Below, one piece after another: positions 19,581 through 22,584 of a stretch of DNA of 64,000 bases. The position numbers and the translations under genes are program-made. Under the pieces are notes generated by a model. It did not search any database, had not been told where the DNA came from, and saw nothing but the letters and a program-made list of their open reading frames with translations. Source of the DNA: SAR324 cluster bacterium (GTDB lineage: Bacteria; SAR324; NAC60-12); the NCBI GenBank assembly GCA_028281495.1, contig JANQJU010000095.1, positions 25,206 to 89,205 of the forward strand, in the 5' to 3' direction. The stretch's first letter is position 1. Each line of letters begins with the position of its first letter.

Positions 19581-19602
19581 AATTACTACATATGTAGTAA
19601 TT
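19581..19602. promoter_or_regulatory. Perfect 22-bp palindrome AATTACTACATATGTAGTAATT. Putative BlaI/MecI-family operator upstream of blaI.
   Basis: TACA/TGTA dyad typical of BlaI/MecI/CopY operators, about 50 bp upstream of the repressor start codon. Confidence 0.55.
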
Positions 19603-19649
19603 AAGAGAAAATCCGTATCTTTAAACGATAAATCTGAAGTCATGGAACG

Positions 19650-20054
19650 ATGAAAAAGAAACCATTAACCCTCGGACCGTTAGAAATGGAGTTGTTGGGG
19701 TTATTTGAAGACAATCGAGAATTGTCGGTTCGCGATGTTCAAGCGGAACTGAGAAGCCGAAACAATGAATTAGCGTATACAACGGTTATGACGGTCTTAG
19801 GCAGGCTGTATGATAAGAATCTCTTGAATCGTCGTAAAGCAGGGCGGCAATATATCTATTTTCAAGCACAAGAAACCCCTACTACAGGAAAATCATTTTT
19901 GAATCAGGTCAGTCATGCCTTGTTTCACAATCAACGGTTAAAACCGATTCTTTCCCTATTGGAAGAAGATGAATCTCTTACCGAACAGGAGTTGTTGGAG
20001 TTAAAAAAACAAGTGGAGCTTAAAATTCAGAAAATGAAAAAGAGTGAAAAATGA
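19650..20054 (+). CDS. blaI: BlaI/MecI/CopY-family winged-helix transcriptional repressor.
   Basis: 134 aa with a penicillinase-repressor-like N-terminal wHTH. Overlaps the downstream M56 gene by 4 nt. Confidence 0.65.
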   Translation: MKKKPLTLGPLEMELLGLFEDNRELSVRDVQAELRSRNNELAYTTVMTVLGRLYDKNLLNRRKAGRQYIYFQAQETPTTGKSFLNQVSHALFHNQRLKPILSLLEEDESLTEQELLELKKQVELKIQKMKKSEK

Positions 20055-21190
20055 TCGACTTCACGCTGATGAGTACGAACCTCATTATCAATTCTATACT
20101 TTCCTTTTGGATGGCTGCTTTGATCATTTCCATTAGCCTGAAAATCGTACCTTTGGGAATCAATCGAGGGAAACTCACCATCCTTCTGTTGCCGCTGGTG
20201 GTCCTAGTTTGGGATTGTTTGCAAGGGATCCCATCGAATTCCATTCTGTCGTTAGGATATGAAAAAGCTCAATGGATTTTTGCACATAAGATGGATCCTG
20301 GAATCAATCTGGGTGGAGCTATCGCAACATGGTTAGGGCCAACATTTGCGGTCAATTTTATCCTTTATCTGGAAACGCCAGCCGGTAATTATTCGATGAG
20401 TTATGTTGATTTTATTTTGCTATTCATGGATCGACGAGAAATTTTCATACTATTGTTGGTCGGGAGTCTTTTCATCATCTGTATTTCTTGTGTTCGAATT
20501 TTGCGACGGGCCTTCCATTATTATAGATTTAGCCAGCAGACTGGCTCCTTGCCAAATCCGACTCACGTTGTGCTGACACAAAAAATAGGCCCACCAAGAA
20601 AAATCCCCATTTTTCAGTCCAATGATCAATCGATGATTCCGTTTGCCGGAGGAATCATAAAACCCTTCATTCATATTCCGAAGTGGCTCGATTCAGTCCT
20701 CACCTCTCAAGAACAAAATGCTGTTCTTCAACATGAATTGGCCCATATTAAGCACCGAGACTTGATCCTCTTTTATGCTCTACAGTTTTTAACGGATCTC
20801 TTTTGGTTCATTCCAGGCATCTCACGTTGGAATAAAAAAATTTTATGCTTCATTGAACAACTAGCCGACCAAACCGCCATTCGTTCTGGAGTTGAACCTA
20901 CAGATTTGGCGTCTGCCATGATCAAATTGAAGCAGCACCACCTGAACTCAAACCAAGTATTTGGGATGTCTGTCAGTCCAAACACCATGTTTCAACAAAG
21001 AATCAATCTCTTATTACAACCCCCTCAGCTTTCCAGTTGGTTTGCTTCTACGTGTTGGGGTAAAATCGGAATCGGTTTCTTTTGGTTTTGGACATGTCTT
21101 GGTCTACAAGCAAACTTCCTGGGGAACCATGATTTAACCCCCCCCTTTCAGATGCCGGTGATGACTCTAATTTATCAATTATTTATTTAA
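20051..21190 (+). CDS. BlaR1-family M56 membrane metalloprotease/signal transducer. It lacks the C-terminal penicillin-binding sensor domain.
   Basis: N-terminal TM helices and the HELAHIKHRD zinc motif (HExxH) of peptidase M56. Length is 379 aa versus about 585 aa for full BlaR1/MecR1. Confidence 0.6.
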   Translation: MIDFTLMSTNLIINSILSFWMAALIISISLKIVPLGINRGKLTILLLPLVVLVWDCLQGIPSNSILSLGYEKAQWIFAHKMDPGINLGGAIATWLGPTFAVNFILYLETPAGNYSMSYVDFILLFMDRREIFILLLVGSLFIICISCVRILRRAFHYYRFSQQTGSLPNPTHVVLTQKIGPPRKIPIFQSNDQSMIPFAGGIIKPFIHIPKWLDSVLTSQEQNAVLQHELAHIKHRDLILFYALQFLTDLFWFIPGISRWNKKILCFIEQLADQTAIRSGVEPTDLASAMIKLKQHHLNSNQVFGMSVSPNTMFQQRINLLLQPPQLSSWFASTCWGKIGIGFFWFWTCLGLQANFLGNHDLTPPFQMPVMTLIYQLFI

Positions 21191-21230
21191 TCACCTACAA
21201 AACAGGAGGGTTAATAAATTTTTGTAACTT

Positions 21231-21254
21231 AAAATACTACACTTGTAGTATTTT
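21231..21254. promoter_or_regulatory. Second BlaI-type operator, AAAATACTACA-ct-TGTAGTATTTT, upstream of the beta-lactamase-family lipoprotein gene.
   Basis: Shares the TACTACA/TGTAGTA core with the palindrome at 19581-19602. Lies about 70 bp upstream of the 21322 start. Confidence 0.5.
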
Positions 21255-21321
21255 AATAATTAAAACAAGGATTGCAGGGGGCTATTTCTCTTCAATCATT
21301 ACGTTACAAAGGAGAGTAATC

Positions 21322-22584
21322 ATGAATCGACATATGCCAACCGCCATTTCATTGATATTAGGAATGGCTTTAGTTTTCATAGCTTCTTGTTCAACCACTA
21401 GCCCGTATCTTGATGTATCAGACCAGGAAAAACGGATAGAAATTTTAAGCAAGTGGTTAGAGTCGGAGCGAATTAAAAGCCATATCGCAGGAATGTCCAT
21501 TGTGATTGTACAAAATAACCGGGTACTGCTGAAACAAGGTTTTGGGTGGTCAAATGTTGAGGAGAAAATACCTGTAACCCCCAAGACGCTCTTTCCTATG
21601 GGTTGTTTAACAAAAACATTCACAGCAACACTCATTGCCAAGTTGGTTGATGAAGGTAAATTAGATTGGGATGATCCTGTGGCTAAGTATATTCCTGGTT
21701 TTAATCTGACGATAAAGAGTGACCATGAGAATGATACTGTAACCATTCGAGATTTACTCACCCATCGGGTAGGGATCGGTCTAACATCTAACAAAGGCTG
21801 GAATAATATGACGAGCCTAGAAGAAGTGCTGACAGCATTATCTGAAGAAAAACCAGCCGCTAGATTCAGAACAAGTTATCTCGATAATATTGCCCTGGAT
21901 ATGGCTGCAGGAGTTTCAGCAGGTAAGGCATCAAATTTGAGTTGGGCCGATTCCTTAAAGACTTTTTTACTAGGGCCGCTTGAAATGAGAAATTCTCAGG
22001 ATTTGGTCCTGCTAAAAAAGAAAAAACTCCGTCAATTTACGAGTTATGATTGGATAGAAAAAGAAGAAAAGTTTAAGAGCATTCCTTGGAAAAACGCTTT
22101 TGTGGATAACAATCCAGCAGCAGGGTTGGTTTCTAATGCAGAGGATATGGGCAAATGGCTAAAGTTTCTATTGAATCAAGGCAAATTTAATCGCCAACAG
22201 GTTGTGAGTGCAGAACAATTACAAGAAACTTGGACCCCTCAGATTGATTTGCCATGGCAGTGGGCCGTTGACCTCAAATTTTCAAAGGGAATATTGGGTG
22301 GAGATGCCGCAGAATATTACGGAATGGGATGGGTGATTGGAGAGAAAAAGGGACAAAAAGTCATCGCGACGAGAGGGCGTTATTCAAAGTTCCGTTCTCG
22401 AATGGTTTTGCTTCCTGATACAAACGTTGGTTTTGTTGTAATGGGAAACTCCCCCGGACACAATTCGGATTTATATTCAAAGTTGATAGATAATATCTTT
22501 GAAGCTGTGTTAGGCAGCCGAAGCCACGACCCAAATGCGACACACGACCCACAACCACACATACCACTTCACCAAACCCGCTAA
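21322..22584 (+). CDS. Beta-lactamase/transpeptidase-fold lipoprotein (class C beta-lactamase family) with Cys in place of the catalytic Ser (C-L-T-K instead of S-x-x-K).
   Basis: Lipobox signal (LVFIASC). FPMGCLTKTFTATLIAKLVDEGKLDWDDP aligns with the class C/AmpC-family motif ...GSVSKTFTATL.... The Cys codon TGT is at 21604-21606. Confidence 0.55.
   Translation: MNRHMPTAISLILGMALVFIASCSTTSPYLDVSDQEKRIEILSKWLESERIKSHIAGMSIVIVQNNRVLLKQGFGWSNVEEKIPVTPKTLFPMGCLTKTFTATLIAKLVDEGKLDWDDPVAKYIPGFNLTIKSDHENDTVTIRDLLTHRVGIGLTSNKGWNNMTSLEEVLTALSEEKPAARFRTSYLDNIALDMAAGVSAGKASNLSWADSLKTFLLGPLEMRNSQDLVLLKKKKLRQFTSYDWIEKEEKFKSIPWKNAFVDNNPAAGLVSNAEDMGKWLKFLLNQGKFNRQQVVSAEQLQETWTPQIDLPWQWAVDLKFSKGILGGDAAEYYGMGWVIGEKKGQKVIATRGRYSKFRSRMVLLPDTNVGFVVMGNSPGHNSDLYSKLIDNIFEAVLGSRSHDPNATHDPQPHIPLHQTR

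Follow-up and report, generated by a model that had tools for sequence, protein, structure and literature searches.

A BlaI–M56 cassette without a penicillin sensor and its beta-lactamase-fold lipoprotein with degenerate catalytic motifs in a SAR324 cluster bacterium

Introduction

What does a BlaI-type repressor control when the membrane protease encoded beside it carries no penicillin sensor, and what can a beta-lactamase-fold protein do when its nucleophilic serine is replaced by cysteine? Both questions are raised by a locus in a 64-kb stretch of DNA (hereafter the window) from contig JANQJU010000095.1 of a SAR324 cluster bacterium. Three co-directional genes occupy positions 19650–22584 of its plus strand: a blaI-like repressor gene, a gene for an M56 zinc protease and a gene for a lipoprotein of family PF00144, which has the fold of penicillin-binding proteins (PBPs) and beta-lactamases. 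On balance, we favour, with some reserve, the view that they form a three-gene envelope signalling cassette of the CenIR type, whose output is a catalytically dead, BlaI-repressed lipoprotein resembling MipB of Pseudomonas aeruginosa. A preliminary description of the locus had seen in it a split BlaI–BlaR1 regulon, with the lipoprotein acting as a trans-acting sensor or as a cysteine-nucleophile hydrolase. The coordinates of all the features discussed are collected in table 1.

The repressor and its operators

The repressor matches the Penicillinase_R family over residues 8–123 with 77.5 bits (cutoff 22.6). Assignment to the CopY/TcrY copper repressors was considered and rejected: the NCBIfam score is 44.5 bits against a cutoff of 121.95, and the C-terminal half of the protein contains no cysteine and no CxC...CxC signature. 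The start of the M56 open reading frame (ORF) overlaps the end of blaI by 4 nt (ATGA), as originally described. A spacer of 131 nt separates the M56 gene from the lipoprotein gene, which is preceded by a ribosome-binding site (AGGAG, 7 nt 5' of the ATG).

Two palindromes of the form TACTACA-NN-TGTAGTA are found at the locus, operator 1 (TACTACATATGTAGTA) 50 nt 5' of the blaI start codon and operator 2 (TACTACACTTGTAGTA) 71 nt 5' of the lipoprotein start codon. The second site before the lipoprotein gene, reported in the preliminary description, is therefore present and of the same type as the first. There are no other such sites in the window, even when two mismatches are permitted; the number expected by chance is 0.08, none of 100 shuffled sequences contained two or more, and the two operators are each other's best repeat in the region. 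Both contain the BlaI/MecI core TACANNTGTA and come near to matching the half-site GACTACAT. This core is common to BlaI/MecI and CopY operators (PMC1935004, PMC7253601), and the half-site is that of the mecA operator (PMC1935004). The literature on the exact operator string yielded nothing relevant.

The putative blaI promoter, whose spacer contains operator 1, agrees in position with the TTGACA-16-TAGTAT/TAGATT arrangement of the related loci described below. In the block around operator 2, a candidate promoter may be assigned as GTAACT-16-TAGTAT. Because the palindromes match the operator of the family and the two-site layout recurs in six related loci, it is very likely that the blaI operon and the lipoprotein gene are both under BlaI control, as was first proposed.

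Table 1. Coordinates of the features discussed in the text. Positions refer to the window, except where a contig of a related locus is named.
Feature	Position	Strand	Details
blaI-like winged-helix repressor	19650-20054	+	134 aa; PF03965 Penicillinase_R, E 1.3e-21
Sensor-less M56 (BlaR1-like) zinc protease	20051-21190	+	379 aa; PF05569, E 3.8e-15, residues 137-320
PF00144 (PBP/beta-lactamase-fold) lipoprotein	21322-22584	+	420 aa; E 2.5e-55, 188 bits, full-length match
Lipobox I-A-S-C23	21379-21390	+	Cys23 codon 21388-21390; Ser at +2; signal peptide
Motif I, C95-L-T-K98 (for S-x-x-K)	21604-21615	+	Cys95 codon TGT, 21604-21606
Motif II, D188-N-I190 (for Y-x-N)	21883-21891	+	codons GAT AAT ATT
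Motif III, T350-R-G352 (for H-x-G; K-T-G in AmpC)	22369-22377	+	codons ACG AGA GGG
Operator 1	19584-19599	none	perfect palindrome; extended dyad 19581-19602
Operator 2	21235-21250	none	palindrome; perfect 13-nt arms 21229-21241 / 21244-21256
Putative blaI promoter	19576-19603	+	TTGATA (-35-like, 19576-19581), 16-nt spacer with operator 1, TAATTA; by eye and from relatives
Block between M56 gene and gene 3, TTTTTGTAACTTAAAATACTAC...	21218-21256	+	aligns with L095, L143, L092, L091, L144, L093
Two operator copies flanking the blaI TTGACA -35 in related loci	L092 1729-1766; L095 4950-4989; L143 3950-3990; L144 3951-3988		
Small exported gene-3 proteins in related loci	L091 6598-6999; L093 6674-7075; L095 6572-6982; L144 5627-6052; L143 from 5599		
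Rce1-like (CPBP/CAAX-type) membrane protease	22836-23819	-	directly downstream of the lipoprotein gene
LytTR protein	24040-25023	+	C-terminal LytTR domain; N-terminal half hydrophobic-looking by eye
Second PF00144 protein	48756-50402	+	548 aa; intact SVTK
Low-GC block	13000-25200		about 12 kb; GC 35-42%, flanks 45-48%
ORFs of the low-GC block	14259-17495; 17476-18741	-	no Pfam match
Gene remnants	18852-19415	-	76-aa ORF, then short ORFs
Public gene call	19387-19653	+	88 aa; spans operator 1; probably spurious
Split short-chain dehydrogenase	25468-25818; 25830-26261	+	adh_short positions 1-94; 128-189
GNAT acetyltransferase	13034-13537	-	
TacA1-type antitoxin	about 13534-13809	-	public contig call
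MACPF-domain protein	30855-32852	-	
Pentapeptide-repeat protein	55095-56492	-	C-terminal TIR domain
Cas3	56587-59211	+	followed by further ORFs

The membrane protease

The second protein of the cassette matches Peptidase_M56 with 56.3 bits, and its zinc-protease motifs are intact, with HELAH at 228 (HExxH) and EQLAD at 269 (ExxxD). Hydropathy analysis places hydrophobic segments at approximately residues 11–29, 42–60 and 130–148. A fourth, weaker segment (approx. 340–360) lies under the hydropathy threshold and was recognized by eye and by alignment to the fourth transmembrane segment of BlaR1. The C-terminal tail past this last segment has about 20 residues.

There is no match to the penicillin-binding sensor domain PF00905 in the M56 protein, and its score with the blaR1_generic model is 36.5 bits (cutoff 400). 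When compared with Staphylococcus aureus BlaR1 (8exp), the M56 family profile matches residues 107–329 of 602 (E = 3.4e-6), and the match ends where the sensor domain begins. The absence of a C-terminal sensor, reported initially, is thus borne out. The protein and its neighbour have the composition of a sensor-less BlaIR module, in which an M56 protein without a penicillin-binding domain adjoins a BlaI homologue.

The regulon had been called split on account of this absence, a term that has to be abandoned. Among about 15 000 M56 proteins, about 6 per cent carry a penicillin-binding domain, the commonest architecture has no recognizable C-terminal domain, and a BlaI homologue lies within five genes in 96 per cent (PMC13492132). 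Because so few M56 proteins carry the domain, the sensor-less form is ordinary, the rule in the family, and nothing has been split. Moreover, the slot of the third gene normally holds an unrelated small exported protein, as shown below.

The lipoprotein: fold and lost catalytic motifs

The AlphaFold model of the lipoprotein has a mean pLDDT of 88.2 and a pTM of 0.88, and the nearest solved folds identified with Foldseek are those of Pab87, Flp, the R61 DD-peptidase, family VIII esterases and AmpC (including 2qmi, 4gdn and 1ikg). The closest relatives are the Pab87/CubicO-type (2qmi) and Flp/FmtA-type (4gdn) proteins (E = 1.5e-26 and 7e-28; Foldseek TM 0.68–0.72). The models bla_class_C and AmpH give 71.7 bits (cutoff 415) and 78.6 bits (cutoff 266), respectively. 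Of the original assignment to the class C beta-lactamase family, the PF00144 fold therefore stands, but the nearest proteins are peptidase homologues of the CubicO/Pab87/Flp type and not AmpC-type enzymes. The best sequence homologues are 35–40% identical. Most homologues carry a C-terminal DUF3471 domain; the lipoprotein lacks it and ends about 40 residues past the catalytic domain.

The replacement of the S-x-x-K serine by Cys95, noticed at the outset, is supported by every alignment. Cys95 aligns with the nucleophilic serine of Flp (4gdn) and Pab87 (2qmi), and this column is serine in 119 of 119 homologues from a word-index search, in 80 of 80 GTDB genome loci and in 147 of 147 homologues obtained when 1.84 billion representatives were searched exhaustively with HMMER, that is, in all 346 sequences checked. 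In the AlphaFold model, Cys95 lies at the N-terminus of helix 94–110, the position of the nucleophile, and it is the sole cysteine of the mature protein. Two other S-x-x-K strings, at 174 and 199, were considered as the true motif and rejected, both being off the motif position. A sequencing error at the TGT codon was also rejected: contigs from three separate runs (SRR20820732, SRR20820734 and SRR20820735) are 100% identical across the codon, and because of this identity an assembly error is excluded.

The two other motifs of the active site are lost as well, which the preliminary description had overlooked. The stretch around motif II, FR..(Y)xYxN...AAG, aligns without gaps with the twelve nearest homologues, Y-x-N being replaced by D188-N-I190; the register is identical, with full posterior support, in a profile built without the query. 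Tyr186 was examined as a shifted catalytic tyrosine and discarded: in the ungapped register it matches a separate, moderately conserved tyrosine of the family (Y-A-Y-D-N). The histidine of motif III, present in 80 of 80 and 144 of 147 homologues, is Thr350 in the lipoprotein. Neither a Y-x-N nor a K/H-T/S-G string occurs anywhere in the 420 residues. Lys98 is the only classical catalytic residue left, in contrast to the CubicO/Pab87 and Flp/FmtA proteins, which retain S-x-x-K, Y-x-N and H-x-G.

The conservation of the remaining sequence was assessed with 103 homologues. There are 78 columns conserved at 85% or more, 8 of them in DUF3471 and 70 in the catalytic domain. The lipoprotein matches 53 of these 70, and the homologues have on average about four mismatches. 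The mismatches of the lipoprotein include all three columns that are 99–100% conserved (Ser, Tyr and His), and most of the others are conservative; the fold-defining blocks WDDPV and TIRDLLTHR are intact. The codons TGT, GAT and ATT, three of the four catalytic changes, are each one nucleotide from codons for Ser, Tyr and Asn. As judged from the sequence, this pattern fits the preservation of a fold for some non-catalytic role better than it fits random decay.

Related loci and the exchange of the third gene

BlaI relatives at 45–52% identity are numerous, and the few that are named belong to Bdellovibrio or Oligoflexia. Related loci were reached through BlaI homologues and their contigs. Six were examined (L091, L092, L093, L095, L144 and L143, the last from a metagenome-assembled genome of Bdellovibrio sp.), with BlaI proteins 45–50% identical to that of the window. 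An M56 gene of 373–386 aa comes after blaI in each of these loci. Four of these M56 proteins were aligned (L091, L092, L093 and L095); they are collinear with the M56 protein of the window and 26–29% identical to it, and the invariant residues fall in the predicted periplasmic loop, in the zinc site and close to a C-terminal GGN(H/Y) motif. A word-index search with the M56 protein returned only the protein itself and one weak match, and when metagenomes were scanned with the M56 alignment, the M56 proteins retrieved were all distant, with 20–40% identity over partial matches.

Sites of the type TACTAC-N4-GTAGTA (at most two mismatches) are present in all six related loci, where they are confined to the region 5' of blaI and to the interval from the M56 gene to the third gene. 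Before blaI, the TTGACA −35 element is flanked by one copy or by two, and a single copy follows the M56 gene. Where two copies flank the −35 element (L092, L095, L143 and L144), the left one reads TACTAC-N4-GTAGTTGACA; the blaI promoter of the window has a single copy. The block TTTTT.TAACTTAAA.TACTAC... around operator 2 can be aligned across all seven loci, including the window, which makes operator 2 an ancestral feature of the family.

The gene behind this conserved site is not the same in all loci. Its product is a small exported protein of 133–141 aa in five of the six relatives; these proteins are mutually 28–45% identical and have no Pfam match. In L092, the gene encodes a 56-aa exported peptide and is followed by a gene for an OmpH/Skp chaperone. 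Nothing resembling the small protein was detected in the window. The simplest history, as far as the sequences indicate, is that a PF00144 gene took the place of the output gene behind a BlaI-controlled promoter that already existed.

A second example of this arrangement was not found in either direction. Among 86 loci of the closest PF00144 homologues, none has blaI or an M56 gene within 6 kb; these loci comprise six contigs from three look-ups and 80 genome loci from a PF00144 alignment scan, and they were searched by phmmer with the window proteins and with S. aureus and Mycobacterium tuberculosis BlaI sequences. Conversely, a PF00144 profile detected no PF00144 gene within 4–5 kb in 51 M56/BlaI loci (46 metagenomic M56 loci and L091–L095), and none is present among the called genes of L143 and L144. 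The window itself encodes a second PF00144 protein, with an N-terminal extension of about 240 residues that has no Pfam match. Recent duplication of its gene was rejected as the origin of the lipoprotein gene, the two proteins being 21% identical.

Proposed function of the cassette and alternatives

In the CenIR-like reading that we favour, a BlaI-family dimer would occupy both operators, one over the blaI–M56 promoter, resulting in autoregulation, and one over the promoter of the downstream gene. An envelope signal, probably read by the conserved periplasmic loop (approximately residues 61–129) and the short C-terminal tail of the M56 protein, would activate the protease. Cleavage by M56 would then remove BlaI, upon which both promoters would fire. 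The main output would be the downstream gene, which codes for a small exported protein in the relatives and for the PBP/beta-lactamase-fold lipoprotein in the window. The lipoprotein would be exported, and the serine at +2 would favour the outer membrane according to the Escherichia coli sorting rule. Because Ser, Tyr, Asn and His are replaced by Cys95, Asp188, Ile190 and Thr350, it would most likely bind without hydrolysis; possible ligands are a D-amino-acid or peptidoglycan-type peptide, a compound resembling a beta-lactam, and a protein partner.

Several points weigh against this proposal. The arrangement is a singleton, with PF00144 in the slot in no second genome, and selection on the degenerate site is unmeasurable. 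The surroundings of the locus, a low-GC block and neighbouring gene remnants, leave room for decay. A scan for sigma-70 consensus promoters and terminators called nothing at either operator. Finally, Cys95, Lys98 and Asp188 could in principle constitute a new catalytic set.

One alternative assigns to the lipoprotein the role of a trans-acting co-sensor anchored in the envelope. With the inducing ligand bound, it would touch the periplasmic loop or the tail of the M56 protein and thereby switch the protease on, its synthesis under BlaI control providing positive feedback. We regard this as improbable. It would account for an M56 protein that has no sensor domain and yet has invariant residues in its predicted periplasmic loop, and the third gene always encodes an exported protein directly behind M56. 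There are also precedents, MipB/MipA for the ParRS system (PMC10936184) and PbpP for sigma-P (PMC8092216). However, orthologous M56 proteins are found beside an unrelated small protein, or beside a peptide and Skp in L092, and a specific interface between sensor and protease would need to have arisen anew once the gene had been exchanged. In CenIR, the adjacent exported protein is the repressed target, and its deletion in the wild type has no reported effect (PMC13492132). Sensing by PbpP requires the binding of a beta-lactam at the active-site serine, which is absent here. Nothing in the data favours a role as trans-acting sensor over that of a simple regulated output.

It is also rather doubtful that the lipoprotein gene has no function, being the drifting remnant of a PF00144 gene that arrived behind an existing BlaI-controlled promoter in variable, low-GC DNA and whose active site is already gone. 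A singleton with relatives no closer than 35–40%, situated in a 12-kb low-GC block beside a trpF fragment and a split short-chain dehydrogenase gene, is consistent with such an origin, as are the single-nucleotide distance of three of the four catalytic changes from a Ser, Tyr or Asn codon and the 17 conserved columns lost where homologues lose about four. The gene nevertheless has an intact frame of 420 codons with a good ribosome-binding site, a signal peptide and a lipobox, and its sequence is identical in the three runs. The fold is predicted confidently and its defining motifs are kept, and the mismatches outside the active site are mostly conservative.

It is very unlikely, contrary to one of the two possibilities first envisaged, that the lipoprotein works under BlaI control as a hydrolase with a cysteine nucleophile, or as an acyl-trap, using Cys95 with Lys98 and Asp188. 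The cysteine is placed exactly at the nucleophile position, at the N-terminus of the helix, and is the only one in the mature protein; Lys98 is retained, and Asp188 brings a carboxylate to the position of the general-base tyrosine. Engineered Ser-to-Cys TEM beta-lactamase and thiol PBP3 keep partial activity or penicillin binding, and Glu-Lys-Cys triads function in the amidases of the nitrilase superfamily. Against this, four of the five catalytic positions are changed; the tyrosine is gone, and so are the asparagine and the motif III histidine of the substrate and oxyanion environment. Cysteine occupies the nucleophile position in none of about 345 other PF00144 proteins, so that no clade conserving such chemistry is seen, and the literature on CxxK variants turned up nothing. 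Least of all do we expect that Cys95, Lys98 and Asp188 are a working set, as a hydrolase or as a covalent trap relaying acylation to M56 through the periplasmic loop, although this would be the first natural thiol enzyme of the PBP/beta-lactamase fold and, in the case of the relay, a BlaR1-like sensor re-created in trans from another branch of the penicillin-recognizing superfamily.

Genomic context

The cassette is located in a low-GC block, interrupted by a normal-GC stretch at 18.5–19.5 kb, which also holds the Rce1-like and LytTR genes and two long ORFs on the minus strand. The block looks like acquired or variable DNA. Directly 5' of operator 1 there are gene remnants, among them a 76-aa ORF whose match to PRAI/TrpF (PF00697, E = 5.5e-7) is confined to the final 39 positions of that family. 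At one edge of the block, the two short-chain dehydrogenase ORFs are probably a frameshifted pseudogene. At the other edge, the acetyltransferase gene lies beside the antitoxin gene, and the pair looks like a TacAT-like toxin–antitoxin system.

No BlaI-type operator was found at the Rce1-like or LytTR gene, and no relation of these genes to the cassette was seen in the relatives. Further away, the window encodes a MACPF-domain protein, a pentapeptide-repeat protein with a TIR domain and Cas3, the last probably belonging to a type I CRISPR-Cas operon. Neither tRNA genes nor Rfam families were found in the 64 kb. In a collection of 15 billion proteins, 13 window proteins are either alone in their 90% cluster or accompanied only by a self-copy with an alternative start; the lineage is therefore without a close sequenced relative in this collection.

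Significance

The locus is an unusual single case in an otherwise ordinary system: it combines a sensor-less BlaIR module with a beta-lactamase-fold pseudoenzyme lipoprotein, both of known kinds. Its practical weight is limited by the single sequence, which comes from an uncultured lineage. Sensor-less BlaI/BlaR modules make up the bulk of the family, and the sensed cue and the targets are known for almost none of them. The window locus and its six relatives form a clean small regulon, with two conserved operators and one output slot whose gene can be exchanged, and this design is the more reusable result. The lipoprotein would be the second natural example, after MipB, of a PBP fold put to new use in a non-catalytic envelope protein that a stress-type regulator controls. 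Its position hints at an evolutionary route linking BlaI modules with penicillin-recognizing proteins.

Comparison with known systems

The BlaI–BlaR1–BlaZ and MecI–MecR1–MecA systems of S. aureus and Bacillus licheniformis have in common with the window a winged-helix repressor followed by an M56 protease, the operator core TACANNTGTA, and a repressor acting both on its own operon and on an adjacent envelope protein from the penicillin-recognizing superfamily. Unlike in those systems, the M56 protein of the window has no extracellular PF00905 sensor. The target in the window has the PF00144 fold (class C/DD-peptidase type) without the catalytic residues, and theirs is an active class A beta-lactamase or PBP2a. 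Furthermore, the target gene is co-directional and downstream in the window, whereas theirs is divergent.

M56 proteins with HExxH and ExxxD but without a sensor, each with a BlaI-family partner, are also found in BlaIR of M. tuberculosis and M. abscessus and in PvmSR of P. aeruginosa, although gene order and regulons differ from those of the window cassette. For M. tuberculosis BlaIR, the target is an active beta-lactamase of class A. The genes that PvmSR regulates in P. aeruginosa are those of virulence and metabolism (bioRxiv 10.64898/2026.08.03.742534).

For the trans-sensor reading, the model is PbpP of the sigma-P system of Bacillus thuringiensis, a free-standing PBP that acts in trans as the sensor for regulated proteolysis through its active-site serine (PMC8092216). 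It signals to an anti-sigma factor cascade and not to an M56/BlaI pair.

CenIR of Clostridioides difficile, a Gram-positive host, comes close to the window in design. A sensor-less BlaR homologue lies by a BlaI homologue, and the downstream gene for an exported protein is the dominant repressed target. The gene order is the same; the adjacent exported protein, of 136 aa, is induced about 500-fold on depletion of the repressor and shows no induction with beta-lactams or with further drugs that act on the cell wall (PMC13492132). CenR has a C-terminus about 100 residues longer and disordered. The third genes have no detectable sequence relation, that of the window having a recognizable, though degenerate, enzyme fold.

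For the lipoprotein itself, the counterpart is MipB (PA1797) of P. aeruginosa, a stress-induced lipoprotein of the same fold in which SXXK, YXN and KTG are degenerate. The neighbouring ParRS system induces MipB, for which a role as co-sensor, acting by binding or sensing and not by catalysis, has been proposed (PMC10936184). MipB differs in having two additional C-terminal beta-barrel domains, the outer-membrane partner MipA and control by ParRS; the window lipoprotein has none of these, its neighbours being the Rce1-like and LytTR genes and not a gene for a MipA partner. Compared at the level of fold and motifs, the two proteins share the lipobox, the fold and the degeneration of all three catalytic motifs.

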